A stretch of DNA of 64,000 nucleotides from Bacteroidota bacterium (GTDB lineage Bacteria > Bacteroidota > Bacteroidia > UBA4408), in assembly GCA_016721765.1 (NCBI GenBank), contig JADKHO010000002.1:927141-991140 (forward strand), given 5' to 3'. The notes under the pieces are model-generated. The model saw nothing but the letters and a program-made list of their open reading frames with translations. It searched no databases and was not told the DNA's origin. Shown here in pieces: positions 12,941-43,625 of this stretch. The stretch's first letter is position 1. The number at the start of each line of letters is the position of its first letter. Made by a program: the position numbers and the translations under genes.

Positions 12941-12980
12941 AGAAAAGCCTTGCAAGAGTGAATCTTACAAGGCTTTTTTC
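12941..12980 (+). terminator. Hairpin AGCCTTG(n15)CAAGGCT + T6 immediately left of the att repeat
   Basis: A 7-bp stem is followed by TTTTTT, and it abuts the attL copy. Confidence 0.4.
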
Positions 12981-12995
12981 GAGCGGTCCGGACGG
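12976..12995. repeat. attL: 20-bp direct repeat TTTTCGAGCGGTCCGGACGG (duplicated 3' end of tRNA-Asp + 8 nt flank)
   Basis: It is identical to 43544..43563. The last 12 nt equal the 3' acceptor/T-stem end of the tRNA-Asp gene at 43552..43625. Confidence 0.75.
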
Positions 12996-25195: not shown

Positions 25196-25212
25196 ACATA
25201 AAATATATTTTC

Positions 25213-25852: not shown

Positions 25853-27415
25853 ATGGCAAAACAAAAAAAAGAAGTAAAAGAAAAAAGCATTGAAGTTACC
25901 CTTTGGGAAGCAGCTAATAAATTGAGAGGTAGCGTAGAGCCTGCCGAATACAAACACGTAGTATTAGGCCTGATTTTCTTAAAGTTTGCCAGTGACAAGT
26001 TTGAAGAACATCGAGCCAAATTGATTGCAGAAGGCAAAGACAAATACCTTGAACTGGCTGACTTCTACAATATGAGCAACGTATTCTTTTTGGAAGAAAC
26101 AAGCCGGTGGAGTCTCCTTATAAAAAAGTCAAAACAAAACGACATTGCATTGCTCATTGACACAGCATTGCATACTATTGAAAAAAACAACAAAGCACTG
26201 AAAGGTGCATTGCCCGACAATTACTTTTCTCGTTTGGGTTTGGATGTAACCAAACTAGCTTCTTTGCTTGATACCATTAACGACATTGACACCATCAAAG
26301 ACCCGAAGCAAGATGTTGTTGGGAAAGTGTATGAATACTTTCTTTCAAAATTTGCATTGGCAGAAGGAAAAGGCAAAGGAGAATTTTACACCCCCAAAAG
26401 CATTGTAAACCTGATTGCCGAAATGATTGAACCTTACAAGGGAATTATCTATGACCCAGCTTGTGGTTCGGGTGGAATGTTTGTGCAGAGTATTAAGTTT
26501 ATTGAAGCACACCACGGCAACAAAAAAGAAATTAGCATTTACGGACAGGAATACACCAACACGACTTACAAACTGGCGAAAATGAATTTGGCCATTAGAG
26601 GCATTAGTGGCAATCTTGGTGAAAAAGCTGCCGACACTTTTGCAGACGATCAACACAAAGACCTTAAAGCAGATTACATAATGGCTAATCCACCTTTTAA
26701 CCAAAAAGATTGGCGTGCCGAGAACGAATTGAAAGACGACCCACGTTGGAGAGGCTATGATGTGCCTCCCAAAAGCAACGCCAATTATGGTTGGATATTA
26801 AATATGGTTTCTAAACTTTCCGACAATGGTATTGCAGGTTTTATATTGGCAAACGGTGCATTGAGTGGCGGTGGCGAAGAATATAAAATACGCAGAAAAC
26901 TGATTGAAAATAAATTGGTGGAAGCCATTTTGGTATTGCCACGTAATTTGTTTTATACCACCGACATCAGCGTTACGCTTTGGATTGTGAACAAAAACAA
27001 AAAAGCACAAAATAAAAAAGTGGGAGTCGAAACCCGCAACAACCGTGACCGTGAAAAGGAAATCTTATTTATGGATTTGCGACAAATGGGCGAACCATTT
27101 GAAAAGAAATACACACAGTTTTCTGAGACTGATATTCAAAAAGTAACAAGTACATACCACCAATGGCAAACTAAAAATATTGAAAACGTTCCTGAATTCT
27201 GCTATTCGGCAACGTTTGATGAAGTAGCCAAAAAAGATTTTTCACTCGTTCCGAGCAAATACATTGAGTTTGTAAACCGTGACGAGAATATTGACTTTGA
27301 CAAAAAAATGCAAATCCTGCAAAACGAATTTGCAGGATTACTAAAAGCAGAAGCTAATTCAAAAAATGATTTACTAACCGTGTTTAAAGAATTGGGTTAT
27401 GAAATCACATTATAA
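25853..27415 (+). CDS. hsdM: Type I restriction-modification system DNA methyltransferase subunit
   Basis: It has an N6-adenine MTase catalytic motif NPPF (IMANPPFNQ) and an AdoMet motif (DPACGSGGMF). It is 520 aa and has HsdM N- and C-domains. Confidence 0.9.
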   Translation: MAKQKKEVKEKSIEVTLWEAANKLRGSVEPAEYKHVVLGLIFLKFASDKFEEHRAKLIAEGKDKYLELADFYNMSNVFFLEETSRWSLLIKKSKQNDIALLIDTALHTIEKNNKALKGALPDNYFSRLGLDVTKLASLLDTINDIDTIKDPKQDVVGKVYEYFLSKFALAEGKGKGEFYTPKSIVNLIAEMIEPYKGIIYDPACGSGGMFVQSIKFIEAHHGNKKEISIYGQEYTNTTYKLAKMNLAIRGISGNLGEKAADTFADDQHKDLKADYIMANPPFNQKDWRAENELKDDPRWRGYDVPPKSNANYGWILNMVSKLSDNGIAGFILANGALSGGGEEYKIRRKLIENKLVEAILVLPRNLFYTTDISVTLWIVNKNKKAQNKKVGVETRNNRDREKEILFMDLRQMGEPFEKKYTQFSETDIQKVTSTYHQWQTKNIENVPEFCYSATFDEVAKKDFSLVPSKYIEFVNRDENIDFDKKMQILQNEFAGLLKAEANSKNDLLTVFKELGYEITL

Positions 27416-28565
27416 ACCATTGGGTAAATACATACAACTTGTTGTAGGTCGCAACAATGAGTTGGGAGATTTACCATTAATGGGCTTGAGTATTTCAAAA
27501 AAATTTATTCCTTCTATTGCGAATACAATAGGAACTGATATGTCAACATACAGAACCATTTATAAAAATCAGTTCGCTTATGGTCCTGTAACATCAAGAA
27601 ACGGAGATAAATTTACAATTGCTTTGTTTAATGATTATGACAAAGCGTTGATTTCACAAGCATATATTCCTTTTGAAGTAAAAGACAGCAACGAACTTGA
27701 ACCCGAATATTTGATGATGTGGTTTCGCAGACCTGAGTTTGACCGTTACGCAAGATTTAAAAGTCACGGCAGTGCAAGAGAAATTTTTGATTGGGAAGAA
27801 ATGTGTAATACACTTCTGCCAGTTCCCCACCCCGACAAACAACGAGAAATAGTAAAAGAATACAACACCATACAAAACCGCATAGCACTCAACCAGCAAC
27901 TGATACAAAAACTCGAAGAAACCGCACAAGCTATTTATAGGCAGTGGTTTGTGGAAGGTATTGATTTACAGAATTTGCCAGAGGGGTGGACAATTGGTGA
28001 TTTAAGTATGATTTCCAAAAAAATATTTAGCGGTGGTACTCCGTCAACTGAAGTTGATGAATATTGGAATGGTGATTATTACTGGTTTTCTTCTGGTGAG
28101 ACTGGCTATAAATATATTCTTAGTACAGAAAAAAAAATCACTAAGGAAGGTATAAAGAACTCTACCACAAAAAAAACACAAAGATTAAGTACTGTAATTG
28201 CAACTGCGGGTCAGGGTAAAACTAGAGGTCAATCTGCTCTAATTTTTAATGATGTTTATATTAACCAATCTGTTATCTCTGTAGAACCAATAAGTACTGA
28301 ATATTCATATTTCATTTTCCTGAACATTAATTCAAGATACGAGGAATTAAGAAATGATTCTGATGCTCAAAGTATCAGAGGTAGCATCAATTCAAATGAC
28401 ATTAAAGGGTTGTCAACGATAGTGCCACTAAATGACATTATGCTAAAGTTTCACAAGACCGTTTCTCCTTTTTTTGAAATAATTGAGAATAAAATGAAAC
28501 AAAACCAAATGCTAAAGGAACTGAAAGATTTGCTTCTTTCGAAATTAGCGACAATAGAAAATTAA
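27399..28565 (+). CDS. hsdS: Type I restriction-modification specificity subunit
   Basis: It has two target-recognition domains separated by a conserved central helical repeat. It overlaps hsdM by 17 nt. Confidence 0.8.
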   Translation: MKSHYKPLGKYIQLVVGRNNELGDLPLMGLSISKKFIPSIANTIGTDMSTYRTIYKNQFAYGPVTSRNGDKFTIALFNDYDKALISQAYIPFEVKDSNELEPEYLMMWFRRPEFDRYARFKSHGSAREIFDWEEMCNTLLPVPHPDKQREIVKEYNTIQNRIALNQQLIQKLEETAQAIYRQWFVEGIDLQNLPEGWTIGDLSMISKKIFSGGTPSTEVDEYWNGDYYWFSSGETGYKYILSTEKKITKEGIKNSTTKKTQRLSTVIATAGQGKTRGQSALIFNDVYINQSVISVEPISTEYSYFIFLNINSRYEELRNDSDAQSIRGSINSNDIKGLSTIVPLNDIMLKFHKTVSPFFEIIENKMKQNQMLKELKDLLLSKLATIEN

Positions 28566-28572: not shown

Positions 28573-29754
28573 ATGAGATATAAATATCAGCTAATAATAT
28601 TAGGCAGTAAAGTTTCAATAATTGATGATGTGATAGAATTGTTTTCTAAAAAATTAGAAGATTTGAAATTGCCAGATAGTTCTGTTAAAATTATTAATTC
28701 AGGTAATTTTGAAGCTGAATACCTAGGTAATCAGCCGGCATTTGTATTTTATTTTGGTGATGTGGTTGGAAATTTTAAGGATTTGGATATTACTCAGAGG
28801 TTATTGAATGAAGGCACTATGATATTGCCTATTTATTTTAATAATGATTCCTTCTCAAAGGAAATACCATGCATTTTAGAAAACCAAAATGGTATTCAGT
28901 ACAAAAAAATTGAAGAAGACAGAATAGTAAATATTGCATTAGAATCTTTTGAACTATTAAACAATACAAGAAAAATATTTATTAGTTATAAAAGAAATGA
29001 ATCAACATCAGTTGCCATTCAATTATTTGAAGCTTTAGAAGCGCATAATTTTGATGTTTTTTTAGATACTCATTCAATAGGTAAAGCTGAAGCGTTTCAA
29101 GAAGAATTATGGCACAAAATGACGGATTGTGATGTAATTCTACTACTGAATACACCAAATTTTCTGAATAGTCATTGGTGTAAAGAAGAATTTGCAGAAG
29201 CTGGTGCTAAACAAATTGGTATTGTTCAATTGGTTTGGCCAAATCATAATGTAAAAATGGATGATACATCTCATATCAGTTTTCCAAAGCAATTAATTAA
29301 AGAAAATTTCATTGCCGATTTATTTGATGACAGGGATAAATCAAAATTAAAAGATGATATAGTTGAAGAGATAATCAAAGAGGTTGAATCAGTTAGAGCG
29401 AGGAATTTAGCCGCACGGCAAGATAATTTAATTACAGAATTTAGAAATATTGCTGATAGAATTGGAAAAAAAATCACTTTACAACCAGAAAGATTTTTGA
29501 CAGAAGATTTGTCAAACGGTGAAAGAAGAATATATATACCAACGATTGGTATACCACAGTCAACAAGTTGTCAATCTGCTGAAATAAGAAATGAATTATT
29601 AAACTATGGTAATATCAGCATTAGGTTAATTTATGATGATATACGGATAAGAGAAAAATGGATTAATCATCTAGATTGGTTAAATAAAAATTTAAATGTA
29701 GATATCAAGACATTAAAAAAACAAGAATTTGAATCATGGCTAAGCAAGAATTAA
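28573..29754 (+). CDS. TIR domain-containing protein (N-terminal unknown domain + canonical TIR + C-terminal extension)
   Basis: The central RKIFISYKRNESTSVAIQLFEALEAHNFDVFLD...DVILLLNTPNFLNSHWCKEE is a canonical TIR signature. It starts 8 nt after hsdS. Confidence 0.6.
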   Translation: MRYKYQLIILGSKVSIIDDVIELFSKKLEDLKLPDSSVKIINSGNFEAEYLGNQPAFVFYFGDVVGNFKDLDITQRLLNEGTMILPIYFNNDSFSKEIPCILENQNGIQYKKIEEDRIVNIALESFELLNNTRKIFISYKRNESTSVAIQLFEALEAHNFDVFLDTHSIGKAEAFQEELWHKMTDCDVILLLNTPNFLNSHWCKEEFAEAGAKQIGIVQLVWPNHNVKMDDTSHISFPKQLIKENFIADLFDDRDKSKLKDDIVEEIIKEVESVRARNLAARQDNLITEFRNIADRIGKKITLQPERFLTEDLSNGERRIYIPTIGIPQSTSCQSAEIRNELLNYGNISIRLIYDDIRIREKWINHLDWLNKNLNVDIKTLKKQEFESWLSKN

Positions 29755-30332
29755 AAAATATTTTTCTATCTGCAAGTATTCCTTTGCCGGACAGAGATCC
29801 AAAATATATAGAGACTGCTGATATTATTGCTATCCGAGATGCTGTTATAGCTCTAACAACAGTTGTGCTACCATATCATAGAATTATTTGGGGTGGTCAT
29901 CCATCAATTACTCCTTTAATTTATTATGTAATGGATAAATTGAAATTAAATGTACAAAATCATGTTACTCTTTATCAATCAGAGTTCTTTAAAGAAAAGT
30001 TTCATGAAGACAATAATAAATTTGAAAATGTAATACTTACTGAAAACCTAGGTGACATTCCTTCAAGTGTTAAAAGAATGCGTGAAATAATATTTTCTGA
30101 GAATAAATTTGTTGCTGCAGTTTTTATAGGTGGTATGGATGGAATTGAAGTTGAATTTAATATGTTTCGAGAATATCATCCGGATGCTATTTTATTGCCA
30201 ATTTCAAGTGCAGGAGCAGCTTCTAAAGTTGTTTATGAAAATCTTCTGCCTGCAGAATTTAAAAATGAAATGCTGGTTAAGAATTATGCTTATATGTCTT
30301 TATTTCAAAATTTGTTAATCGATAAAATTTAG
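29736..30332 (+). CDS. SLOG/LOG-like Rossmann-fold protein (candidate TIR-signal sensor)
   Basis: The protein is 198 aa with two Gly-rich loops (RIIWGGHPS and VFIGGMDGIE) like LOG/SLOG (ThsA C-terminal) domains. It overlaps the upstream TIR gene by 19 nt. Confidence 0.4.
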   Translation: MAKQELKNIFLSASIPLPDRDPKYIETADIIAIRDAVIALTTVVLPYHRIIWGGHPSITPLIYYVMDKLKLNVQNHVTLYQSEFFKEKFHEDNNKFENVILTENLGDIPSSVKRMREIIFSENKFVAAVFIGGMDGIEVEFNMFREYHPDAILLPISSAGAASKVVYENLLPAEFKNEMLVKNYAYMSLFQNLLIDKI

Positions 30333-30335: not shown

Positions 30336-31031
30336 ATGGCAAGAAATGTTTTTGTTTCATACAAATATTCTGACTCAAAAGTTCAAGACTTAGAGCTTTT
30401 TGAGATAGTTAATTATTTTGGTTCTAATATGAGACGTAAAATCACTACTACTGCTCGGCACTATGTAGACAAAGTAGCTGAAAAGCTGGAAAAGGAAGAC
30501 CACATCTTTAAAGGAGAAGATGATAATGAAAGCATGGAGACACTTGCTGATTCAACCATTGGTTCAAAGTTAGGTGATAAGATATTTTACAGTAGCGTAA
30601 CAATAGTGTTAATCTCTAAAGGAATGAAAGAACCTTTCAAGGCAGATAAAGACCAATGGATTCCTTGGGAAATATCTTATTCATTAAAACAACAAGATAG
30701 GCAAGATCAAAAAAGCAAAACCAATGGAGTTATAGCAGTTGTGTTACCTGATGAACTAGGCAGTTATGACTACTATATTACAAGAGATGAAGAATGTAAT
30801 TGCCGGTCATTAAATACGCCTATTCTCTTTGAAATACTAAGAGAAAATATGTTCAATGTAAAAGTCCCTAACAGACGACTTTGCAATGGTAGCTATGTTT
30901 ACACAGGTGATGCTTCATATATCCCGTCAATTAAATGGGAGGATTTTATTATTAAACCTTCAACATACATTGATAAGGCAATAGAACTAAGAGACAGAAA
31001 GGAAGATTTTGAATTAAGAAAAAATTTGTAA
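30336..31031 (+). CDS. TIR-like (DUF1863-like N-terminus) protein with unknown C-terminal domain
   Basis: The N-terminus MARNVFVSYKYSDSK parallels the ThsB-like genes upstream. It is 231 aa and starts 4 nt after the SLOG-like gene. Confidence 0.45.
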   Translation: MARNVFVSYKYSDSKVQDLELFEIVNYFGSNMRRKITTTARHYVDKVAEKLEKEDHIFKGEDDNESMETLADSTIGSKLGDKIFYSSVTIVLISKGMKEPFKADKDQWIPWEISYSLKQQDRQDQKSKTNGVIAVVLPDELGSYDYYITRDEECNCRSLNTPILFEILRENMFNVKVPNRRLCNGSYVYTGDASYIPSIKWEDFIIKPSTYIDKAIELRDRKEDFELRKNL

Positions 31032-31041: not shown

Positions 31042-32754
31042 ATGGCGGAATTACATGTAAGTAGAAAAACGATCAGCAAATTACTAAGTGAAATGCAAGG
31101 AAGAAGGTTTATTATTCCAGATTTTCAACGCCCTTATAGATGGGACATAGAAAAATGTGAAACTCTTTGGAACGATATTATTAATTTTTTTGAAAATGAT
31201 CCAGAAGACACGGAATATTTTTTAGGAACCATTGTTACTGCTGAAAATGAAGAAAAAAATCCAGAAGTAATTGATGGACAGCAACGACTTACTTCGCTTT
31301 TTTTAATGTTAAGAGCTTTTTACAAGAAGTTGGAATCAATGAAAGATGATGATGATGTATTAGGTCTTAAAATGCAAGTAGGTCCATGTCTTTGGGATGT
31401 ACATTCAATATCTAAAAAAGTAAGTGATTTCAGTAAAATACATATATATTCTGATGTTGCAACCGATAGCGATAATCAGGTATTTCATAACATACTAGTT
31501 AAAGGTGAAGTAGAGAAGGCTCATGAAGATAATTATTCAATTAATTATCAATTTTTCAAAAGCTCTTGTGATGAATACGCAAAATCTAAACCGACAAAAT
31601 GGTATAGCTTATGTGTGGCAATACTAAATAGATGCATTATATTACCAATTGAATGTGATAAGCAGGAAACTGCCCTTACAATTTTTTCAACATTAAATGA
31701 TAGAGGGCTTCCTTTGGCAGACTCTGATATTTTTAAAGCTCAAATTTATAAGAACTATAAGTCTTCGGCTGAAAGAAAGGAATTTACTGAGCAATGGAAG
31801 CAGCTTACTGAAGTTTGCACTGAAGCTAATATTTCAATAGATGATGTCTTTAGGTATTATACTCATATTTTAAGAGCTAAAGCGAATGATAAAACAAAAG
31901 AGGTGGGCTTAAGAAAGTTTTATGCTCAAGATTTCTATTCCAGATTAAAAGAGGAGAACTGTCTTTCAGAAATTATTAAACTCTCTAATTTTTGGTGGTA
32001 TATTAATAATTATGAAAATCCTGCTGATTACCTTGAAGAAAATGAACCCTACCAAATCAGTACTTCAGCATTCAGATATATTCACGTTCTTATGAACTAC
32101 CCAAATGAATATTGGAAATATGTTACCAGTGTTTATTACTATACAAACAGAGTAAATGAAAATTTTAAAGATGATTTTGAGATATTCCTGAAACAACTTA
32201 TTGCATTTTTATTTGCAAAATTTATTGAACAGCCTACTGTAAACGCAATTAAAGATGATATTTATAGCGCTTGCATTTCAATTAGTTATGGAAACGGCTT
32301 AGGTCTTTACTACAATTTTTCTCAAGCCTATTTAGCTAATCGATATGAAACATTTTCTAGTTCTAAAATCAGCAAAGGCTTATTGCTACTTGACGCTTAT
32401 TTACATCCTGATCAAAAAGACTACATAAAAAAAGAAGTTGAAATTGAACATATATTTCCTAGGAAATGGCAATCTACAAATTACTTTGGATGGAAAGAAG
32501 AAGATGCAAGGGATTACTTAGACAAATTCGGAAATAAAATTGTTTTTGAGAAGAAACTAAATATTCAGGCCGGTAATGGTTATTTTAAGCGGAAGCAAGA
32601 TAAATATAGGTCTTCGGAAATTTCAGTTGTTAGAGATTTGGCAAACTATCAAAATAATGATTGGACAAAAGATGATATTGAAAAGCGTGAAGCAATTTTA
32701 AAAGATAGATTGATTGATTTTTTCAATAGTTTTATAAATGTTGGCTCTAAATAA
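31042..32754 (+). CDS. GmrSD-family type IV (modification-dependent) restriction enzyme, DUF262 + DUF1524
   Basis: The N-terminal DUF262/ParB-like motif is FIIPDFQRPYRWD...IDGQQRLTS. The C-terminal DUF1524 His-Me finger is EIEHIFPRKW. Confidence 0.8.
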   Translation: MAELHVSRKTISKLLSEMQGRRFIIPDFQRPYRWDIEKCETLWNDIINFFENDPEDTEYFLGTIVTAENEEKNPEVIDGQQRLTSLFLMLRAFYKKLESMKDDDDVLGLKMQVGPCLWDVHSISKKVSDFSKIHIYSDVATDSDNQVFHNILVKGEVEKAHEDNYSINYQFFKSSCDEYAKSKPTKWYSLCVAILNRCIILPIECDKQETALTIFSTLNDRGLPLADSDIFKAQIYKNYKSSAERKEFTEQWKQLTEVCTEANISIDDVFRYYTHILRAKANDKTKEVGLRKFYAQDFYSRLKEENCLSEIIKLSNFWWYINNYENPADYLEENEPYQISTSAFRYIHVLMNYPNEYWKYVTSVYYYTNRVNENFKDDFEIFLKQLIAFLFAKFIEQPTVNAIKDDIYSACISISYGNGLGLYYNFSQAYLANRYETFSSSKISKGLLLLDAYLHPDQKDYIKKEVEIEHIFPRKWQSTNYFGWKEEDARDYLDKFGNKIVFEKKLNIQAGNGYFKRKQDKYRSSEISVVRDLANYQNNDWTKDDIEKREAILKDRLIDFFNSFINVGSK

Positions 32755-35700
32755 ATGAAATTCACGGAAGAAAAATTAGAGAGAGCATTTATCGAATTGT
32801 TAGGGCAAGAAGGATTTCCCTACCGATTAGGCAATACTTTAACTCGTAAGTCTGAAGAAGTATTGATAGAAGAAGATTTACAAAACTTTCTTTTAACACA
32901 ATACGCTGGGCAAGGCATTACAGTCAATGAAATCAAATCTATTATTCTTCAACTCAAATCGCTTTCCGCTTCCGACCTTTATGAAAGCAACAAAACATTT
33001 TTAAAAATGCTTTCAGACGGTTTTATTCTCAAACGAGAAGACCGCAGCCAAAAAGATATTTACATTCAGCTTATCAATTACGCAGGACTAAACAAACACC
33101 GCCAACCTGATGCAGCCCAGTTAATTTCTATTGCTGCCGAACCCGAAGAAGTTTATCCACCAGACAATAACATTTACAAGTTTGTAAACCAATTAGAAAT
33201 TATTGGTTCAGAAAAACGTATTCCTGATGGTATTGTTTATATCAACGGTTTGCCTTTGGTGGTATTTGAATTCAAATCTGCCATTCGTGAAGAAGCCACT
33301 ATTTTCGATGCTTTCAAGCAATTAACGGTTCGTTACCGCAGAGATATTCCTGAACTGTTTAAATACAATGCTTTTTGTGTTATTAGCGATGGCGTAAATA
33401 ACAAGTCAGGTTCATTCTTTGCCCCGTATGAGTTTTTCTATGGCTGGCGCAGAGTGGCAGGTTTGGCAAAAGATGTGGACGGCATTGACAGTATGTTTAC
33501 ACTCATACAGGGAATGTTTCACAAAAACCGATTACGAGATATTATTCGCAACTTCATTTACATTCCTGATAGCTCAAAGAAAAATGAAAAAATTGTTTGT
33601 CGCTATCCGCAATACTATGCAGCAAGAGCATTATATGACAATATCAAAAAAGCCCAAAAGCCCGAAGGAAACGGAAAAGGTGGAACTTATTTTGGTGCCA
33701 CAGGATGCGGAAAAAGTTTTACTATGCTTTATCTCACAAGATTGTTGATGAAGAGCGAATACTTTGAAAGTCCGACTATTGTTTTAATAACTGACCGTAC
33801 CGATTTAGATGACCAACTTTCGGGACAATTTACCAATGCTAAAAATTTCATAGGCGACAATACTGTTGTAAGTGTGGAGAGCAGGGCCAATTTGAGAGAA
33901 TTAATTCAAGGCAGACAAAGCGGAGGCGTTTTCTTAACCACGATTCACAAGTTTACGGAGGACACACAACTTCTTACCGATAGACCAAACGTGATTTGTA
34001 TTTCTGACGAAGCTCACAGAAGCCAAGTAAACCTTGACCAAAAAGTAAAAGTTACCGAGAAAGGCGTTACCAAAACTTATGGCTTCGCCAAATACTTGCA
34101 CGATTCATTGCCCAATGCCACATTTGTTGGTTTCACAGGAACTCCCATAGATGCAACGTTGGATGTATTTGGGAAAGTGGTGGATGCTTACACAATGACC
34201 GAATCGGTGAAAGATGAAATCACTGTGCGGATTGTTTATGAAGGCAGAGCAGCAAAAGTGTTGTTGAACAATTCCAAACTCAAAGAGATTGAAGATTATT
34301 ACGCCAAGTGTGCTGAAATAGGCAGCAACGAAAATCAGATTGAACAGAGCAAAAAGGAAATGGCACACATGTATGCCATCATTGGCGACCCTGACCGTTT
34401 AAAAGCAGTTGCCGAAGACTTTGTAAACCATTATGAAAACAGAGTTTCGGAAGGTTCAACCGTGAAAGGCAAAGCAATGTTTGTGTGTAGCACTCGTGAA
34501 ATTGCTTATGAGTTGTATAAAAACATTATTGCCCTAAAACCCGAATGGAATGAAATACTTGCAGCAGAAGAAGGAGCAGAACTCACCGACAAAGACAAAC
34601 GAGAACTAAAACCCATTGAACGAATAAAGTTGATTGCCACCCAAGGAAAGGACGATGAAAAAGATATGTATGATTTGTTAGGCACAAAAGATTATCGCAA
34701 AGAACTTGACAGACAATTCAAAAATGAAAAATCGAATTTCAAAATCGCAATAGTAGTTGATATGTGGCTCACAGGTTTTGATGTGCCGTTCTTGGATAGC
34801 ATTTACATTGACAAACCTATTCAACGACATAATTTAATTCAAACTATTTCAAGAGTAAACCGCAAGTTTGAAGGAAAGAACAAAGGTTTGGTTGTGGATT
34901 ATATCGGCATCAAAACACAAATGAATCTGGCCTTGAAGCAATACAGCGAAGGCGACAAAGATAATTTTGAAGACATTGCTGAATCTATAATCATTGTAAG
35001 AAATCATTTAGACCTTTTGGCTAAACTGTTTCACACCTTTGACAATTCAAAATATTTTAAAGGCACTACTATTCAGCAATTAAATACGTTGAATTTGGCT
35101 GCTGAATATGTGCAACAAAGCAAAGACTTTGAAACCCGTTTTATGGGCTTGGTAAAGCGACTAAAAGCCGCTTATGATATTTGTGCAGGAAGCGAACAAT
35201 TAACTCAGTTAGAAAGAGATTACACACATTTTTATTTGGCAGTTCGTTCTATTGTTTTCAAACTCACCAAAGGTAATGCACCCGACACAGCACAGATGAA
35301 CGCTAAAGTTCGGGAAATGATAAAAGAAGCGTTGCAAAGTGAAGGTGTAGAAGAAATTTTCAAGCTCGGTGATGAAGCAGAAACCGAACAAGACATATTT
35401 GATGAAGATTATTTAGCGAAAATTGATAAAATCAAATTGCCGAATACTAAAATCAAATTGCTTCAACAGTTATTGGCTAAAGTGATTGCAGAAATTAAAA
35501 AAGTAAATCGTGTAAAAGGAATTGACTTTACTAAAAAGATGCAAGCTCTTGTTGAACGCTACAACAACCGTGATGTAAATGATATTTTGAGAAGTGAAGT
35601 GTATGAGGAAATGGCAAACGCTTTGACAGACTTGATTTGGGAAGTTCACAAAGAATTTGCAGCAGGAGACGCTTTAGGAATTGACTTTGAAGAAAAAGCA

Positions 35701-35967
35701 TTTTACGACATTCTTAAAGAACTGTGTGTAAAATACGACTTCAAGTATCCTGATGACAAAATGATTGACCTTGCAAAAGCTGTGAAAGACTTGGTTGATG
35801 GACAAGCCAAATTTCCTGATTGGAATAAACGTGATGATATTAAATCAGCTTTGAAAGTTGGTTTGATTTTATTATTGGATGAGTTTGGTTATCCACCGGT
35901 GGAAAGGGATGAAGTGTATGTAGAGATTTTTGAACAGGCGGAGAATTTTAAGAAAAATAAAATTTAA
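32755..35967 (+). CDS. hsdR: Type I restriction enzyme R subunit
   Basis: It has an N-terminal HsdR_N, an SF2 helicase motor (GTGKS-like Walker A in ATGCGKSF and DEAH-box ISDEAHRSQ) and a C-terminal helical domain. It is 1070 aa and its start abuts the gmrSD stop. Confidence 0.9.
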   Translation: MKFTEEKLERAFIELLGQEGFPYRLGNTLTRKSEEVLIEEDLQNFLLTQYAGQGITVNEIKSIILQLKSLSASDLYESNKTFLKMLSDGFILKREDRSQKDIYIQLINYAGLNKHRQPDAAQLISIAAEPEEVYPPDNNIYKFVNQLEIIGSEKRIPDGIVYINGLPLVVFEFKSAIREEATIFDAFKQLTVRYRRDIPELFKYNAFCVISDGVNNKSGSFFAPYEFFYGWRRVAGLAKDVDGIDSMFTLIQGMFHKNRLRDIIRNFIYIPDSSKKNEKIVCRYPQYYAARALYDNIKKAQKPEGNGKGGTYFGATGCGKSFTMLYLTRLLMKSEYFESPTIVLITDRTDLDDQLSGQFTNAKNFIGDNTVVSVESRANLRELIQGRQSGGVFLTTIHKFTEDTQLLTDRPNVICISDEAHRSQVNLDQKVKVTEKGVTKTYGFAKYLHDSLPNATFVGFTGTPIDATLDVFGKVVDAYTMTESVKDEITVRIVYEGRAAKVLLNNSKLKEIEDYYAKCAEIGSNENQIEQSKKEMAHMYAIIGDPDRLKAVAEDFVNHYENRVSEGSTVKGKAMFVCSTREIAYELYKNIIALKPEWNEILAAEEGAELTDKDKRELKPIERIKLIATQGKDDEKDMYDLLGTKDYRKELDRQFKNEKSNFKIAIVVDMWLTGFDVPFLDSIYIDKPIQRHNLIQTISRVNRKFEGKNKGLVVDYIGIKTQMNLALKQYSEGDKDNFEDIAESIIIVRNHLDLLAKLFHTFDNSKYFKGTTIQQLNTLNLAAEYVQQSKDFETRFMGLVKRLKAAYDICAGSEQLTQLERDYTHFYLAVRSIVFKLTKGNAPDTAQMNAKVREMIKEALQSEGVEEIFKLGDEAETEQDIFDEDYLAKIDKIKLPNTKIKLLQQLLAKVIAEIKKVNRVKGIDFTKKMQALVERYNNRDVNDILRSEVYEEMANALTDLIWEVHKEFAAGDALGIDFEEKAFYDILKELCVKYDFKYPDDKMIDLAKAVKDLVDGQAKFPDWNKRDDIKSALKVGLILLLDEFGYPPVERDEVYVEIFEQAENFKKNKI

Positions 35968-36331: not shown

Positions 36332-37588
36332 ATGGAAGAAAAAACTGAGCCCAAGAACGGATTTAGGATTTTAAGCGCCACAATGGCTATTGCTATTGCA
36401 TTTATTGCATTGGTAGCATTTCTTTTTATTACTTTTTTTTTCTTCCATAGCGAAATAATCCCATACAAATTTTTCGAACAAGCAACAGGTAATTATGCTC
36501 AATTAATTGCCGGAGTAATTGGAACATTGCTCTCATTTGCAGGCATCATTTTAATATACGCAACCTTTAAAGAACAGCAAGACTCAAATAAGGCGCAAGA
36601 TGATAAACAAAATCGGCAAACTAAACTTTTTAATCAACAGCAATTTGAAACAACTTTTTTTAATTTAATAGAAAACCATTTTAGAATAATTAAAAGTTTT
36701 GATGAAGAATTTTTTGATTTAAATAGAAATAGTTCCAAAGACAAGAGTGGCTATAATCAGCTAAATGATTGCTTCAGAAGGTTCAGAATAAAATTCTACA
36801 AAGTCGCAGATTATCAAATTTCTTCGCAATATTCAAATTACCAAACAATCAACTTTTATCCACTAGCTGATGAAAATATTGATAAAGCAATTATTATAAA
36901 ATCTGCTTCAAACATTCAGTTGATACTTGACTATATTTTGAGCTCAAAACAAATCGATAAAGATGCAAAAGAGCTTTATGCTAGAATATTATTTACTTCT
37001 TTAAATGAGAGTGAGGTATATTTTTACATTGCAAGAAGTTTTTGGGAAACCGGAAAATCAAATTTTTTCTTTAAAAACTTTAACGACTATTTCTTAGAGC
37101 AAGAAATGATGCGGAGTGTAAAGTTTAGCCTGAACCAATCACTTGGTTTTTACACATCCGAAAGAAATGGTCCTTCAAGGGAATTTGTCCTCACTGCTAA
37201 CGATGTTAAGTCAGATTTAAAACTTATCGAAATGGGGGAAAATCAAGAAATAAATTCTATTGAACATTCAATCTACGGAGAAAATGTTTCATTCGAATTT
37301 GAAGAAATAGTTTTACTTTTCCCTGAGCGCAAAAAACTTAAAATAGATTTTGATAAGTGTAATGGAGGAGGAATGTTTTATATAAAGTTACCTATTGCAT
37401 CAATTGCAAATGAACTTTATCCTAATCGCTTTGTACCTAACAGTGTTGAAGAAAAAAAAACATTTTTTGATGAGCATCAATTAGCTATAAGTTATTCTAT
37501 AAAAACAGGCACTGAATCCACAAAAATATGGTATAAAGTAAAAATGCAATATGAAGCTTTGAATCAAATAAGGATGGAAATTGAATAA
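36332..37588 (+). CDS. Hypothetical membrane protein (2 N-terminal TM helices + ~330 aa cytoplasmic domain); candidate defence/Abi effector
   Basis: Hydrophobic segments are at aa ~18-40 and 57-79. It is AT-rich and lies inside the defence island. Confidence 0.4.
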   Translation: MEEKTEPKNGFRILSATMAIAIAFIALVAFLFITFFFFHSEIIPYKFFEQATGNYAQLIAGVIGTLLSFAGIILIYATFKEQQDSNKAQDDKQNRQTKLFNQQQFETTFFNLIENHFRIIKSFDEEFFDLNRNSSKDKSGYNQLNDCFRRFRIKFYKVADYQISSQYSNYQTINFYPLADENIDKAIIIKSASNIQLILDYILSSKQIDKDAKELYARILFTSLNESEVYFYIARSFWETGKSNFFFKNFNDYFLEQEMMRSVKFSLNQSLGFYTSERNGPSREFVLTANDVKSDLKLIEMGENQEINSIEHSIYGENVSFEFEEIVLLFPERKKLKIDFDKCNGGGMFYIKLPIASIANELYPNRFVPNSVEEKKTFFDEHQLAISYSIKTGTESTKIWYKVKMQYEALNQIRMEIE

Positions 37589-37731
37589 GAGTTACTTCTT
37601 GTTTTGCTCAAGCGGTAATTACATCGCAGTTAGACCAAGATTTTTGAGCTCCTGAGTCCTATAATTTCTTAAATAAATGTGAATAACTCGTTATAAATAG
37701 ACGTTTCGAATTCATTAATTTTGCCTTCATA

Positions 37732-38727
37732 ATGACTATAAATCAAACCATTATGAAGAGAACAAACGAAATTATTAAATCATTTGATTACTCAGTAAAT
37801 CAAACTGAAGAATTGCTGTCAAGTTTAAGTGGAGAGCTCAGGATGTTGCCTCTAATTACAACCACTATTGCAAAAGGACAAAAAATATTTAGATGCCGTC
37901 CGATTCGCAAAGTTTCAGATATTCCACATTCTGAAAGCGAAATTTCTTATAGACCTGATGAAAAAGAAATTAAAACAATAGGCAGATGCAACTGGTTGGA
38001 GTCTTCAAAATTCTATGGTTCCATTAAAAGTGGAAATGAAGATGAAAACAATAAGGAGAAAAAGTATATACCTGGGGACGTGACAGCAATTGCAGAAATC
38101 AGTGATCTTGCACGAAATGATAAAGACGGTTCCGAAGTTTATGCAGTTGGAGTCTGGGAGGCTATAGAAGATTTTAAATTGTCTGTCTTGAAACCACCAT
38201 CTACAATTTCTTCCGAAAGTTTAATTGTTACAGAAATTCGTAATGCTTATAATGAGACATTTAAGAATGATAATCTTTCAGATGATCTCATAGAATTTCT
38301 TGAATTATATGGAAAACACATGGTACAAAAAGTAGGACCTGATGAAAATGAAAAGTATATGATATCATCATTAATCTCAGAGACACTTTTAGACTTTATT
38401 CCAGGGATGATATATACCTCGGTACAGTCGGATCACAAGGGCTTAAATGTTGTTATGAATCCACATGATTTTGTTAAATATTTTGCATTAAATCATGTAG
38501 TTATTGGTGAGTATTTCAAATTTAAAAACCATGCAACTTTTGGAGCAGTGTCGGTTTGTGAAGACACAAACGTCATTCCGTTTCAATATAAATTACCATC
38601 TGAAAAGGATCGCTTGATTTATTCTGAAATTATCGCGCTTTTTATCAGAGAAGGTATCTCTCGCGATTATATGGCAGATGTATTGACTAAACAATTGGCA
38701 AGTCAATCTCAAAAGGTTAAAGTATGA
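37732..38727 (+). CDS. RES-like (Arg-Glu-Ser NAD+-glycohydrolase toxin fold) domain protein - tentative
   Basis: GRCNW...KFYGS, AIAEIS and GMIYTSVQSDHKGLNVVMNP resemble the RES domain R / E / S blocks. Confidence 0.35.
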   Translation: MTINQTIMKRTNEIIKSFDYSVNQTEELLSSLSGELRMLPLITTTIAKGQKIFRCRPIRKVSDIPHSESEISYRPDEKEIKTIGRCNWLESSKFYGSIKSGNEDENNKEKKYIPGDVTAIAEISDLARNDKDGSEVYAVGVWEAIEDFKLSVLKPPSTISSESLIVTEIRNAYNETFKNDNLSDDLIEFLELYGKHMVQKVGPDENEKYMISSLISETLLDFIPGMIYTSVQSDHKGLNVVMNPHDFVKYFALNHVVIGEYFKFKNHATFGAVSVCEDTNVIPFQYKLPSEKDRLIYSEIIALFIREGISRDYMADVLTKQLASQSQKVKV

Positions 38728-39194
38728 ATTTCAGCATAGAATCTATTGTTGGAATATTAGCATTGTTAATAGCAGCTGCAGCTTTTATTCTTCAAATAAG
38801 AGATTCAAGTAAGAAAAAACCACCTGCACGTTTTAAAGGAGGCATTGGTAAGGGCAGCGTAGATATAGATATTAATACAGGAAATTTTGTGAGTTTTATT
38901 TTTAATAAAGAAGCAGGAGAGATTATTTATTTAGATATTTTTTTTGAAAATGATCAGAATTATGGGATAGATGAAAATAATAGATTCCATTTTTCTTTTT
39001 ATGAAAAACCAGAGCCGCAATGGGGTGGTTACAGTTTTTACATAGAAGTAAACGAAAATGATGATTTTTTTTTCGACAACAGACCATCTTCAAGAAGGTT
39101 GGCTGGACATTTTAAAATTATTGGAACAATTGGACCGCAACAAGGTTGGGTTACAGCATTTTTGAAGCCTGTAAAAAGTGAATTTATTAACTAA
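38724..39194 (+). CDS. Small protein with N-terminal TM helix, overlapping partner of the RES-like gene
   Basis: It has a 4-nt start/stop overlap with the upstream gene. There is a hydrophobic N-terminus (IVGILALLIAAAAFIL). Confidence 0.35.
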   Translation: MNFSIESIVGILALLIAAAAFILQIRDSSKKKPPARFKGGIGKGSVDIDINTGNFVSFIFNKEAGEIIYLDIFFENDQNYGIDENNRFHFSFYEKPEPQWGGYSFYIEVNENDDFFFDNRPSSRRLAGHFKIIGTIGPQQGWVTAFLKPVKSEFIN

Positions 39195-39217
39195 TTGTCT
39201 TCTATTAAACCTATAGT

Positions 39218-40006
39218 ATGCTTAGACTTGACGAAATAAAACTCCCAGATGGAAGTGGAGAACAAATGCATTTCCATTCTCCTGATGTGGAATACGTTGA
39301 CCCCATTGAGCATGTTGCCAATGCAATATTTGAATTGAGTGCATCTCTTACTACAAAACTTCTTTTGAACTCTGGGTTACCGTATTCACCTGAAATACTC
39401 AAAGGTGAGGCATTAAAGTTCGCATCGAGATCATTAAAAAAGGAAATGGATTTGTTTTTTGCGGCAACAATACCTGAAAATCTTCTTTCGATATTAACTG
39501 CAACCAAAAAGAACAATCAAGTCAAATTACTCAAAGGATTATCTATTACCCAGGAACAACTTTACGCATTTATTTTTAGAGCGAAAACTGAATTTGACTT
39601 TTTATTCAGCACTTATACTGCTGAACACCTACCCAATGGACTTGACCCAAATGAACTACCGGTATTTATAGAGGTAAAAGGTAACGAGGTTAATAAAATT
39701 GGGCAAACTAATCTTTCTGATGGACAACTAAAACAAGTGATGGCACATAGAAATTTTGTCTCTGCAATGTTTATAGATAAGGGCAGCACATGGCACTGTT
39801 TCTTTTTTACATTTAACAGTGTAAGAGGAAAAGAGGCATGGAAGGATGGCCAAGCCCACTATCATTATATTTCTGATAAATTTGGAATTCCCAGAGCAAA
39901 GGTTGTTGAGGAAATAAAGAGCGGAAGATATCACTTGGGAAACCTTCCTCATATTAATCTAAATGATGATCGTTACGACAAAAATAAAGGGAAAGGAACT
40001 TACTAA
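39218..40006 (+). CDS. Hypothetical protein (262 aa), no recognisable domain
   Basis: It is an intact ORF inside the defence cluster with an RBS-like spacing to the upstream gene. Confidence 0.35.
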   Translation: MLRLDEIKLPDGSGEQMHFHSPDVEYVDPIEHVANAIFELSASLTTKLLLNSGLPYSPEILKGEALKFASRSLKKEMDLFFAATIPENLLSILTATKKNNQVKLLKGLSITQEQLYAFIFRAKTEFDFLFSTYTAEHLPNGLDPNELPVFIEVKGNEVNKIGQTNLSDGQLKQVMAHRNFVSAMFIDKGSTWHCFFFTFNSVRGKEAWKDGQAHYHYISDKFGIPRAKVVEEIKSGRYHLGNLPHINLNDDRYDKNKGKGTY

Positions 40007-40463
40007 CAAATACGTAAAAATAATGCTAAAACAGGTTGTAACCGCTATAAGTAAAAGCAATAGAGATTCCTTAATAAAGGGAGTTGAGTATGCAATGTTA
40101 TTAGAAATTGAAACAAACGGGAGAATAGTTATTGAATTATATCCGCTGGTTGTGCCCGGTAAGGTGATTGTATAGATAAGCCTACATGACTTTTTATTTT
40201 AGTGGAAGGAAGTTACGGGCTAATTCTATTCAAAAAAGAAAAAAGCGGATGTAGAAGACTTTTCTGTGTTTCATGAAGAGACTGCAACCGAAAAGGAAGA
40301 TATATCAAATGAAGATATTTCACCATCAATAACGTTTTCGAGTAAAATGAACATTGACGATGATTCTGCGCCATTTTAACCATTACTAATTTAAGGCAAG
40401 TGGTGATCAAAATCCAGTTTTTTTAAATTGGTAGATTTAAGAATTGAATTAATCTTAGGTAAG

Positions 40464-41843
40464 ATGACCAATAAGGAAGTACTCAAAAACTGTATATTTT
40501 GTAATAACTCATTGGATAATTCTGATGAACATATAATTCCTGATTGTTTAAATGGTCGGCTGCACTCAAAGTACTTAATATGCCAAAAATGCAATTCCGA
40601 TAAATTTGGCAAGCAACTTGAACCAGCAATAAAAAAACTATTCAACACAATCCTAATAATATTAGGGTTTGAAAATGCGAAATCAGTCTATTCAGAAGAC
40701 CCTGATGGAAAGATATTTTTATTTAGTAAAGGTGGAAATATTTCGCAAGTGAAACCTGAGATTTTGGTAAATAAAAGGGGGGGGAAAACATATCTCAGCA
40801 TTAATGGTGATAGCAAGAATGCCTTAAAATATTTTGAAAAACAGGCTAATGAACTTTTGAAGAAGGGCCATAGACCTCTACATAGCTGTGTATTGAAAAC
40901 TGATTCAACATCACTTCCAATTAAAGTCGAGGAAAAATTTCAAATCTCTCCAGAGATTATTTTGGAATTAAATAAAATCGCAATCGAATTCTATGCTTAT
41001 TCTGGTTTAGATATTTCTAAGATTAAGGAACTATCGGACAGGGTTAATAAGATGGATAGGACTTTAAAAAATGTTGTATTCTGCAATGCTTCAAATGAAA
41101 TTAGAACCTGTCAATCAGATGAAGTATCTCATATTATAGTTATTCGAACACATACAAATGGATCGCTATACTGTTACATAGAGCTCTTCAATATTGTTTG
41201 TGCTTACATTAATTTTTATGATGGTCATGAAAGCAAAACGATGTATTCTTATTATCAAGATGCTTTAACAGGTGAAAGACTTACAGAAGATATTGTCCTT
41301 GACTTCGATAAGGAGCCTGATAATGTAGAAAATTTAAATTTTAACTCTCAGATTAATGCTTTATCTGATCGGCTAAGGTCAAGGGAATATAATTCGATGC
41401 TTGCATCAATAGCTAAGGATTTAACTGAATTTATTGATAAAGAAGTTTTGGAAGAGAGGATTAAAAAGGAGGATAGAGATAAAATTTTATGCGATAGCAT
41501 AATTGGTGAAGCAGCACGATTGTCAGTTTATGAATTTCCTTATATGATTGAAGATTACGAGGATGAAAAAAATGATGAGTTAAATCACATACATTCCAAT
41601 TTACAAGAAAATCAATATGAAGATTTTTGTAATAAGTATAACAAATTAATTGGGCGTAGGATTGATATACCAGACGAAGGAATTTATCTAATTGATAGTT
41701 TTCTGAAACAACCTTTTTTACAACGAAACGGTATAAGTTTGGTTAAAGTATTTTGTGTATTGACACATGAGGATTTTAAACATAAACGGTATATTCCATA
41801 CAGGGATCTTTTCGTAGCAATATCTATAAGACATGACACTTGA
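40464..41843 (+). CDS. HNH nuclease-domain protein with long C-terminal helical region
   Basis: The N-terminal CIFCNN...DEHIIPDCLNGRL...CQKCNSDKFG is the HNH/His-Me finger pattern. The start is placed at the ATG at 40464 (MTNKEV) rather than the upstream alternative start at 40428. Confidence 0.5.
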   Translation: MTNKEVLKNCIFCNNSLDNSDEHIIPDCLNGRLHSKYLICQKCNSDKFGKQLEPAIKKLFNTILIILGFENAKSVYSEDPDGKIFLFSKGGNISQVKPEILVNKRGGKTYLSINGDSKNALKYFEKQANELLKKGHRPLHSCVLKTDSTSLPIKVEEKFQISPEIILELNKIAIEFYAYSGLDISKIKELSDRVNKMDRTLKNVVFCNASNEIRTCQSDEVSHIIVIRTHTNGSLYCYIELFNIVCAYINFYDGHESKTMYSYYQDALTGERLTEDIVLDFDKEPDNVENLNFNSQINALSDRLRSREYNSMLASIAKDLTEFIDKEVLEERIKKEDRDKILCDSIIGEAARLSVYEFPYMIEDYEDEKNDELNHIHSNLQENQYEDFCNKYNKLIGRRIDIPDEGIYLIDSFLKQPFLQRNGISLVKVFCVLTHEDFKHKRYIPYRDLFVAISIRHDT

Positions 41844-42199
41844 AGAAGAATTAATATTTTCAATTAACATTTTACAAAAACTTAGGGATCATTTGAAACA
41901 GAACTCAAATAATAAGGAGTTAATCGAAAGAACATTGCAAAAATTAAGGGATAAAAAATTGGATTTAATTCTTACTGAGTTTATCTCAGGTGAGGAAGAA
42001 ATTATTTAAACAGTACTAAATCCTCCTGCGCCCAAGTGTTCCTTTTTGAGGGTGTTTTTTTAAAAAACTACAACCTCCGAAAGCCTTGATGCTAAATGAA
42101 ACCCGTTGGTTTTAGTCGGACAGCGATGTAATTACCGCTCAAGCAAAAAAACAATGTTATTATATTTTGTTTTTCATAATAACATTGTATATTTGCATC

Positions 42200-42907
42200 A
42201 TGAAAGCTCAAAAGAAGATTACAATAAAACCATTTCTAAATCAGAACCTGATACCGGAATGCACTGATGGTAGCGGAAAAAACTTTTATCCCTTATACAT
42301 ACAAATTACCTACGACCGCAAAAACACACAAATTCGCAGTAAGTATGGTATGTATTACGAAACGCTGAACGATCCGGGATTATTTAATCTAATTGCCTTT
42401 GAGTCGAACATCCTTCAAAAAATCATACAATTTGAGACAAAAAATAGCGATTGCGAATACGATTTAAGAGGGCTTAAAAACAAATACACTACTTACAGCA
42501 CATCTATTCACTATGCGGTAAGCGAATACCTCAAAGAAAAGCTTAAATGGGCAATCAAGCGAACTAACAATGAGCTAATGCATGTTTTAAAATTTGAGGG
42601 CTTTAAATCGGGTTTTGATAATCTGTACAAGGCTTCACAATTGTTATTTCCCAACTTGAAAGAAAAAATTACTCCTGAGTTTAAAAAAGAAATTGAAGCC
42701 TTTCATTTACTGAATAAGCTCCACCCCATTGGCAGCGGGGAATATTCCTTCGCAGCCTTAATCGATTGGAAAGACAATAGTTTTAAATCAAAATTTGAAG
42801 CGAGTTTGAATAAGGAATTGAAACAAAACAAAAAACAAGTGTCCGAAACGCTTGCTATTATTGATAAAATCGTTGCTGAAAATTTGAAAAGTATAGAGGG
42901 CGCTTAA
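42200..42907 (+). CDS. Integrase N-terminal (Arm DNA-binding + SAM-like) domain-only protein; truncated integrase or recombination directionality/regulatory factor
   Basis: ITIKPFLNQ...YPLYIQITYDRKNTQIRSKYGM matches the Bacteroidota integrase arm-binding domain. It is 235 aa with no catalytic R-H-R-Y region. Confidence 0.45.
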   Translation: MKAQKKITIKPFLNQNLIPECTDGSGKNFYPLYIQITYDRKNTQIRSKYGMYYETLNDPGLFNLIAFESNILQKIIQFETKNSDCEYDLRGLKNKYTTYSTSIHYAVSEYLKEKLKWAIKRTNNELMHVLKFEGFKSGFDNLYKASQLLFPNLKEKITPEFKKEIEAFHLLNKLHPIGSGEYSFAALIDWKDNSFKSKFEASLNKELKQNKKQVSETLAIIDKIVAENLKSIEGA

Positions 42908-42984
42908 AAAAATTTACTAAATATGTTCGTATTTTTTTTATATTATAATAACAGTAATTAGACTGAGTAAAAGTCAAGAAATTA

Positions 42985-43365
42985 ATGACTCCTGAATTAA
43001 ATAAAATTTTCAAAGCTCTTGAAAAGGAGATAACTGCAATAGTTACCAAAAAGGTAACAGCGCAGCTGAGGGAATCTTATGTGGAGGATGTTAAAGCAAT
43101 AGTAAAGGATTGCTTGAAAAACAATGAATTTATAAATGAAGCAGGTTCAGGTTTCATTACCATTGAAGCACTTAGTAAAAAATATGGGGTAAGCAGAAAA
43201 ACAGTAACTGATAAATGCAAGCAATTCAATGAAGGTTTCTTAAAAATTGAGCGCAAGTGGGTGAATGGACACCATACAGTAAACGAAAAACAATATGTGG
43301 AGGCTTGTGATCATTCCTCAAGAAAAGGGAAACCGAAATTTATCTCCAAGCAAAAAGCAGCTTAA
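42985..43365 (+). CDS. Small helix-turn-helix DNA-binding protein (excisionase-like), adjacent to attR
   Basis: ITIEALSKKYGVSRKTVTDKCK is an HTH. The protein is 126 aa and is the last gene before the tRNA/att site. Confidence 0.4.
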   Translation: MTPELNKIFKALEKEITAIVTKKVTAQLRESYVEDVKAIVKDCLKNNEFINEAGSGFITIEALSKKYGVSRKTVTDKCKQFNEGFLKIERKWVNGHHTVNEKQYVEACDHSSRKGKPKFISKQKAA

Positions 43366-43543: not shown

Positions 43544-43563
43544 TTTTCGAGCGGTCCGGACGG
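43544..43563. repeat. attR: second copy of 20-bp direct repeat TTTTCGAGCGGTCCGGACGG overlapping the tRNA-Asp 3' end
   Basis: It is identical to 12976..12995. Confidence 0.75.
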
Positions 43564-43625
43564 GACTCGAACCCGCGACCCCATGCGTGACAGGCATGTA
43601 TTCTAACCAGCTGAACTACCGAACC
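43552..43625 (-). tRNA. tRNA-Asp (anticodon GTC)
   Basis: The reverse complement folds as a cloverleaf. The acceptor stem is GGTTCGG/CCGGACC (one G-U). The anticodon stem is CATGC/GCATG with loop CTGTCAC, giving GTC. The T-arm is GCGGG-TTCGAGT-CCCGT. The length is 74 nt and no CCA is encoded. A downstream terminator hairpin is GCCCTTAAGTA..TACTTAAGGGC. Confidence 0.85.

Follow-up and report, generated by a model that had tools for sequence, protein, structure and literature searches.

Five adjoining genes downstream of the hsdR gene of a type I restriction-modification (R-M) operon in a member of the Bacteroidota (GenBank assembly GCA_016721765.1, lineage UBA4408) raise the question of whether they act together as one system, and of what the gene among them with a possible RES domain might do. 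They lie at positions 36332 to 41843 of a 64,000-nucleotide (nt) stretch of contig JADKHO010000002.1 (positions 927,141 to 991,140, forward strand), hereafter the window, and are numbered here as open reading frames ORF1 to ORF5. A sequence-only reading of the window had tentatively called the second gene RES-like and paired it with a small membrane protein encoded by the third; it had offered the RES-like gene as the missing effector of TIR and SLOG genes further upstream or as an independent abortive-infection module. Our analyses indicate that the 5.5-kb segment consists of single-gene modules that assort independently of one another and is not one multi-gene system: the five genes do not travel together. 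The best characterised of them, ORF2, is very probably a RES-type enzyme of highly divergent sequence, and in its genomic behaviour it is a gene that stands alone within defence islands.

RES identity of ORF2

As a mechanical ORF, ORF2 spans 37732-38727 on the plus strand (331 amino acids, aa). The true start is most likely the methionine M8 at 37753, because all homologues and two gene callers begin there, which gives a probable gene of 37753-38727 and 324 aa; residue numbers below are those of the 331-aa version. Nine close homologues, with 35-100% identity, were found among 5.8 billion proteins. The profile of these nine was then used for an exhaustive search of 1.84 billion representatives and matched 1,204 of them at E ≤ 1e-3, with 571 reaching E ≤ 1e-10. 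The resulting family of 1,204 clusters (at 50% identity) consists almost entirely of proteins of 280-320 aa, and every named member of it that was looked up is called "hypothetical protein". When 142 members were sampled, 81 matched the Pfam RES family (PF08808) at E ≤ 0.01, with a best E of 8.6e-10, and no other family recurred. Four proteins, P0150 (31.0 bits), P0200 (28.0 bits), P0160 (26.9 bits) and P0174, scored above the PF08808 gathering score of 23.2, and ORF2 itself matches P0150 by BLASTP with an E of 2e-14. Carried through the family alignment, the blocks of the RES profile correspond to ORF2 residues 82-125 (profile positions 23-50) and 199-247 (profile positions ~90-140).

An AlphaFold model of ORF2, computed on the nine-sequence alignment, reached a predicted local distance difference test score (pLDDT) of 82 and a predicted template modelling score (pTM) of 0.81. 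It has the RES fold, which resembles that of ADP-ribosyltransferases (ARTs), and the top structure returned by Foldseek was NatT (E 3e-4, probability 0.99). Four residues, R54, R85, Y95 and E122, are invariant across the 142 members; seven more (R56, S72, F94, G96, W142, Y228 and S230) are conserved in at least 90% of them, and N239 is invariant among the closer 26 relatives. The predicted active site of ORF2 comprises R54/R56, R85, Y95, E122, S230 and N239. In NatT, the active site is formed by R23, a Flap (residues 26-66), R82, Y93, S184 and N193, with E104 nearby (PMC11535050), and in MbcT by R27, R47, Y58, E69 and S126, of which R47, E69 and S126 make up the RES motif (PMC6436930). The residues of ORF2 follow the same order as those of MbcT and NatT, and their spacings are close to those of NatT: 10 residues from R85 to Y95 and 9 from S230 to N239, compared with 11 (R82-Y93) and 9 (S184-N193). 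Because transitive homology, predicted fold and catalytic residues agree, we assign ORF2 to the RES-type enzymes with high confidence, as a very divergent representative. The tentative RES-like call is thus borne out: the R, E and S positions, together with R, Y and N positions, are conserved, the RES blocks fall on the catalytic residues, and no profile match to an unrelated metabolic function was obtained.

Two points have to be set against this identification. Searches with ORF2 itself against Pfam, PADLOC, NCBIfam and PHROGs returned nothing even at E 0.1-1, and PDB sequences gave no match; in particular, PF08808 was not matched directly at E ≤ 0.1 and the precomputed Pfam annotation is also empty. 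The RES assignment is consequently transitive and structural, not one by direct profile match. Secondly, the mapping of the catalytic residues is one by motif order, spacing and profile coordinates.

Outside the predicted core, ORF2 carries helices at its N-terminus (residues 3-37), one insert at 58-93, a second and helical one at 164-220, and, at its C-terminus, a beta-hairpin followed by helices (251-329). The insert of ~30 residues between R54/R56 and R85 sits at the position of the NatT Flap, a site at which insertions have been acquired repeatedly according to the NatT authors (PMC11535050). The 164-220 insert forms three helices within the RES core, and in the model the first core strand comes after only ~40 residues. 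Two longer proteins were noticed in the family: P0155 (574 aa, L017 3995-5719) and P0221 (562 aa) have an additional N-terminal region of ~280 aa that gave no Pfam match.

An alternative is that ORF2 is an ADP-ribosyltransferase acting on one particular protein or nucleic acid, in the way that ParT acts on Prs or in that of DarT-like ARTs, instead of consuming NAD+ (nicotinamide adenine dinucleotide) in bulk. NatT, MbcT and Res, the three best-characterised relatives by fold, all degrade NAD+, however, as do aRES, the only RES proteins of the stand-alone defence type to have been studied, and the full R/R/Y/E/S/N constellation of NatT is present in ORF2. We consider a dedicated ADP-ribosyltransferase rather unlikely.

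Two groups of RES proteins are suited to comparison with ORF2. The first, aRES, was described in a preprint of January 2026 (Osterman et al., bioRxiv 10.64898/2026.01.28.702374) and comprises stand-alone RES proteins that are encoded in defence islands and guard E. coli against phages. They convert NAD+ to nicotinamide and ADP-ribose-1''-phosphate (ADPR-1''-phosphate) and cause growth arrest, are countered by phage Macro phosphatases (Adpp) and aRad1 inhibitors, and are present in 4.7% of the genomes of Bacteroidota. Like them, ORF2 is a single gene with no partner, falls within the 300-600 aa range, lies in a defence island next to an R-M system and keeps the RES catalytic residues. It differs in its three-helix insert in the RES core, in a C-terminal extension of ~80 aa and in lying below Pfam RES detection. 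Moreover, aRES proteins are defined by hhsearch probabilities above 80% for both RES and PF18870 (HEPN/RES-NTD1) (bioRxiv 10.64898/2026.01.28.702374), the latter being a helical N-terminal domain of ~100 aa (PMC3710099). With HMMER, where the aRES authors used hhsearch, PF18870 was found neither in ORF2 (E ≤ 0.1) nor in the 142 relatives (E ≤ 0.01), and a further scan of 16 relatives at E ≤ 0.1-1, which took in a subset of the 142 and six longer proteins besides, was also negative. Because there is no PF18870 match and only ~40 residues stand before the core, we judge HEPN/RES-NTD1 to be missing from ORF2. By its stand-alone nature, size and island setting ORF2 would pass for an aRES protein, but the PF18870 part of the aRES definition sets it apart.

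The second group consists of the toxins of Xre-RES toxin-antitoxin (TA) pairs (MbcT/MbcA, Res/Xre of P. putida, NatT/NatR, VPA0770/VPA0769 and ParT/ParS). These toxins have 145-250 aa, whereas ORF2, with 324 aa, is about double; identity to ORF2 is only 12-15%, and no PDB sequence was matched even with family profiles. No Xre/COG5642-type antitoxin gene adjoins ORF2, and neither the upstream ORF1 nor the downstream ORF3 matches a helix-turn-helix (HTH) or antitoxin profile. Because no antitoxin gene is present, ORF2 is not an Xre-RES TA toxin. As judged from sequence and model, it is a predicted stand-alone RES protein whose architecture differs from both aRES and Xre-RES proteins.

Genomic contexts of ORF2 and the neighbouring ORF3

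Genes of the ORF2 family were compared in eight contexts, namely the window, L001/2/3/10, L004, L005, L012/13, L014, L015/16 and L017/18. A search of GTDB genomes with profile A1 gave a single locus, and no plasmid relative of ORF2 was found. Upstream and downstream neighbours differ in all eight contexts and have no detectable similarity to one another. The genes near ORF2 relatives include SIR2_2, Schlafen-AlbA_2, McrB_N, DEAD/ResIII helicase, OLD-TOPRIM/AAA_21, Eco57I, T5orf172, fused N6_Mtase/Methylase_S and HipA_2. ORF2-family genes are thus repeatedly sited among restriction and defence genes, and because none of the eight contexts shares a conserved neighbour and ORF3 is an ORFan, we conclude that ORF2 stands alone.

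The proposed partner, ORF3 (38724-39194, plus strand, 156 aa), begins with one N-terminal transmembrane (TM) segment (residues 1-29 by hydropathy). If ORF2 and ORF3 made up a two-gene toxin-immunity or abortive-infection module, the membrane protein would restrain or localise the RES enzyme or sense on its behalf. Such a module would fit the same-strand overlap of the two genes, which was confirmed as 4 nt (ATGA, 38724-38727, spanning the ORF2 stop codon) and which implies translational coupling, and it would fit the coding-like codon usage of ORF3. A protein with an N-terminal TM segment is furthermore encoded directly downstream of the ORF2-family gene in four of the eight contexts (window 38724-39194, L005 6748-7347, L012 2767-3102 and L015 4017-5012). 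However, no sequence similarity links these four proteins, unrelated genes for soluble proteins occupy this place in the remaining four contexts, and a proportion of 4/8 is not significant at a proteome-wide TM frequency of about one in four. The closest homologue of ORF2, in L004 (74% identity), is followed after 193 nt by a soluble 177-aa gene. As for ORF3 itself, the 5.8 billion proteins contained no homologue besides the query, no profile of Pfam, PADLOC, NCBIfam or PHROGs was matched, and the gene is absent beside all ORF2 relatives. A two-gene module is accordingly unlikely, and the proposed pairing of a RES protein with a small TM partner did not survive the comparison. ORF3 is a lineage-specific, translationally coupled membrane ORFan that has no demonstrable tie to RES function.

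ORF2 had also been put forward as the NAD-depleting effector that the TIR-SLOG-TIR genes upstream appeared to lack, in which case it would be switched on by their nucleotide signal as in Thoeris. The proposed logic of a NAD+-consuming effector is common to both; ThsB-like TIR and SLOG genes are indeed found in the same island and on the same strand as ORF2, and the 198-aa SLOG protein has no recognisable effector domain. Unlike a ThsA-like effector, on the other hand, ORF2 is devoid of known signal-binding domains such as SLOG, Macro or SAVED and does not adjoin the TIR and SLOG genes, from which it is separated by 6.7 kb containing GmrSD, hsdR and ORF1, with intergenic gaps of 365 and ~165 nt. 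No relative of the window's TIR, SLOG or ThsB genes, nor of ORF1, ORF3 or ORF5, was found within 6-10 kb of ORF2 relatives in the eight contexts. This role is highly improbable. Neither the "RES plus TM partner" nor the "missing Thoeris effector" account should be propagated.

The evidence instead favours the remaining suggestion of the sequence-only reading, an independent abortive-infection module. We infer, as a moderately probable model taken as a whole, that ORF2 is a self-contained RES NAD+ phosphorylase/NADase that defends the cell by depleting NAD+. Its own accessory segments, namely the N-terminal helices, the Flap-position insert, the three-helix insert and the C-terminal extension, would keep the enzyme inactive in cis. 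Infection by a phage would set it to cleaving NAD+ and perhaps also NADP+, the likeliest chemistry, by analogy with MbcT, NatT and aRES, being phosphorolysis to nicotinamide and ADP-ribose-1''-phosphate. Growth arrest or abortive infection would follow.

Several observations count against so complete a model. A location in defence islands is suggestive of a defence function and is not proof of it. The tight ATGA coupling of ORF2 to ORF3 is not explained if ORF2 stands alone, and the TM genes downstream in half of the contexts could hint at a membrane partner that is not homologous from one context to the next. In addition, the restraint in cis of a toxin that has no partner is a proposed mechanism.

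Two of the compared contexts have features of their own. The L001/L002/L010 islands encode, two genes ahead of the ORF2 homologue, a 139-aa protein with an HNH-like CxxC...HHxK...CxxCH motif (8893-9312 in L001). A LexA-like S24 repressor gene is found just ahead of this block, which may be under SOS or prophage regulation. In L017/L018, a HipA_2 kinase-like gene begins 3 nt after the ORF2-family gene, and a fused type IIG-like methylase/specificity gene precedes it.

The accompanying genes ORF1, ORF4 and ORF5

The presence of five intact plus-strand ORFs downstream of hsdR was confirmed, together with their coordinates and coding-like codon usage. In-frame codon-usage log-likelihoods of all five range from 0.20 to 0.29 per codon (ORF1 0.22, ORF3 0.29), compared with 0.25-0.30 per codon for accepted genes of the window such as SLOG and TIR. 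The GC content of the segment is 0.29-0.36, and in a shuffled window a run of 156 or more codons free of stops would be expected only 0.16 times. Direct comparison of the five ORFs with Pfam, PADLOC, NCBIfam and PHROGs gave only two matches, HNH_5 in ORF5 and phrog_8999 in ORF1, and none of the five matched a PADLOC model. PDB sequence searches with ORF1, ORF5, P0150 and family profiles A1, A2 and A4 produced no relative, only chance-level hits (E ≥ 0.5). That the genes lack a housekeeping identity and lie in a defence island, as had been proposed, is upheld. A scan for sigma-70 promoters and terminators stayed at chance level and is uninformative, Bacteroidota promoters being different. Two small plus-strand ORFs, 39963-40175 (70 aa) and 41833-42009 (58 aa), overlap ORF4 and ORF5, respectively, at their 3' ends; one metagenome gene caller calls them, but their codon scores are lower (0.17 and 0.13 per codon) and they are doubtful genes.

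ORF4 (39218-40006, plus strand, 262 aa) belongs to a family of ~90 proteins of ~255 aa from Flavobacterium, Mucilaginibacter and many Bacteroidota metagenomes. With the exception of a single label that is evidently spurious (bTHX, P0098), the members bear the name "hypothetical" or no name, and no Pfam family recurs among them (PF17070 was obtained for two longer proteins that match weakly). Thirteen residues are invariant: P29, K98, Q101, P148, G162, W192, H193, E206, H214, H216, Y217, S219 and H245. The predicted structure is of high confidence (pLDDT 94, pTM 0.89); a beta-meander forms its N-terminal part, a long helical hairpin comes next, and the C-terminal part is an alpha/beta domain, which holds W192-H193, E206, H214-x-H216-Y217-x-S219 and H245. 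When the fold of this model was compared with the PDB, no match was found. The neighbours of ORF4 homologues vary and include SIR2_2, Fic and small plasmid genes. Only once, in L004, does ORF4 recur near an ORF2 homologue (74% identity for ORF2 and 73% for ORF4); elsewhere it is found without ORF2. The L004 arrangement points to shared island ancestry and not to a functional link. We regard ORF4, with its conserved His/Glu cluster, and ORF1 as stand-alone genes to which no function is assigned.

What ORF2 and ORF4 may mean together can be put only tentatively. ORF2 would represent a large, unannotated clade of stand-alone RES proteins (at least 1,204 clusters), distinct from aRES. Lacking HEPN/RES-NTD1 and equipped with its own helical insert and C-terminal extension, this clade would be a second family, evolved independently, of single-protein, NAD+-depleting antiphage sensors that recognise phage in a different way; in ORF4, a conserved mobile-element family with a fold unmatched in the PDB and a His/Glu cluster resembling a metal site would have been noticed for the first time. 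If ORF2 acts as proposed, a sizeable part of the RES world is missed by current tools, for Pfam, PADLOC and NCBIfam all fail on ORF2 and the aRES definition excludes it, and the number of bacteria that use NAD+ depletion as a defence would be underestimated. A RES core equipped with other accessory segments would offer a natural comparison for how single-protein NADases sense phage, and for whether the Adpp phosphatase and the aRad1 inhibitors work across RES families. ORF4 is a cheap target for structural genomics, because its model is confident, its putative metal ligands are conserved and its fold is not a known one. The aRES preprint takes away most of the surprise; what keeps its value is a family of ~1,200 clusters invisible to the profile libraries tried, and the ORF4 fold that has no counterpart in the PDB.

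ORF5 extends over 40428-41843 (plus strand, 471 aa) as a mechanical ORF starting with TTG; the gene caller picks the ATG at 40464 (40464-41843, 459 aa), and the true start is probably this later one. Residues 22-72 match Pfam HNH_5 (PF14279) with 32.8 bits against a gathering score of 27.5 (E 6.7e-8), the CxxC...DEH...N...CxxCN motif is intact, and the gene caller also tags HNH_5. ORF5 is therefore a candidate HNH_5 nuclease, as predicted from its sequence, and the HNH domain that the sequence-only reading had noted is confirmed. It shares with HNH_5 endonucleases the N-terminal beta-beta-alpha-Me zinc-finger HNH motif and differs from them in the ~390 C-terminal residues, which have no match anywhere (PADLOC, NCBIfam and PDB included). 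No close relative was found in metagenome or viral contigs, and the only other match to ORF5 is a 66-aa C-terminal fragment on a conjugative Adhaeribacter plasmid.

ORF1 (36332-37588, plus strand, 418 aa) does have the two TM helices ascribed to it, at residues 9-45 and 55-80 by hydropathy, followed by a soluble C-terminal region. Its sole profile match is phrog_8999, a family of unknown function (E 1.3e-12, residues 18-229). Pfam, PADLOC, NCBIfam and PDB gave nothing significant; the hits below threshold, MFS_2 (21.6 bits against 27) and MARVEL, concern the TM region only. By tblastn, no close relative was found in phage, plasmid, IMG/VR or JGI metagenome collections. In its two TM segments and the "FETTFFNLIENH" region, ORF1 resembles the putAbiC family ("putative phage abortive infection protein"); Pfam gave no such match and we do not claim this identity.

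The tRNA-Asp island and its other genes

An exact 20-nt direct repeat, TTTTCGAGCGGTCCGGACGG, was identified by alignment at 12976-12995 and 43544-43563. The right copy overlaps the 3' end of a tRNA-Asp(GTC) gene (43551-43625, minus strand) and lies 1.7 kb past ORF5; just inside the left, att-like copy is a tyrosine integrase gene (13235-14608, plus strand) with Phage_integrase and SAM_5 domains. By our own estimate, the chance recurrence of a 20-mer in 35 kb is ~6e-4. The repeats, the tRNA-Asp gene and the integrase bound a 30.6-kb low-GC island integrated at tRNA-Asp, and because they delimit it in this way, the five genes are its distal cargo. An Rfam scan returned two tRNAs only. Each copy of the repeat is preceded by a GC-poor hairpin, different at each.

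Such an island could also be read as a recombination hot spot in which the five genes, as mobile-element cargo, have nothing to do with phage defence but serve addiction or stabilisation, inter-bacterial competition or anti-defence. The integrase and flanking tRNA gene are compatible with this, as are the absence of any PADLOC match among the five genes, the ORF5 fragment on a conjugative plasmid and the occurrence of ORF4 homologues on Mucilaginibacter plasmids, amid small hypothetical genes and Fic. The neighbours in the window and around the relatives are nevertheless overwhelmingly restriction and defence genes, and RES and HNH are classic defence-effector domains. Cargo of this kind is quite improbable, and a role of the segment in defence remains the preferred reading.

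The further cargo of the island comprises genes for cargo of the type IX secretion system (T9SS), three tandem ThsB genes and the type I R-M operon. The latter was assigned from Pfam and PADLOC and lies entirely on the plus strand: hsdM (25853-27415), hsdS (27399-28565), a 393-aa TIR protein (28573-29754, PADLOC ThsB, E 1e-133), a 198-aa SLOG-cluster3 protein (29736-30332), a 231-aa ThsB-TIR protein (30336-31031), a 570-aa GmrSD (31042-32754) and hsdR (32755-35967). The operon is thus split, with the TIR, SLOG-cluster3, ThsB-TIR and GmrSD genes inserted between hsdS and hsdR and joined by overlaps or gaps of at most 10 nt. This embedded block recalls the layout of prrC within hsd operons. The SLOG-cluster3 protein carries no fused effector domain.

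The tandem ThsB_TIR genes are short (163, 207 and 125 aa) and occupy 24081-25590, directly upstream of hsdM. The first two share one base (24572), and the trio may be a duplicated or fragmented ThsB array. At the other end of the island, between ORF5 and the repeat at tRNA-Asp (42167-43365), lie ORF6 (246 aa, no match) and ORF7 (126 aa, weak HTH matches), which may provide the island's own DNA-binding or excision functions.

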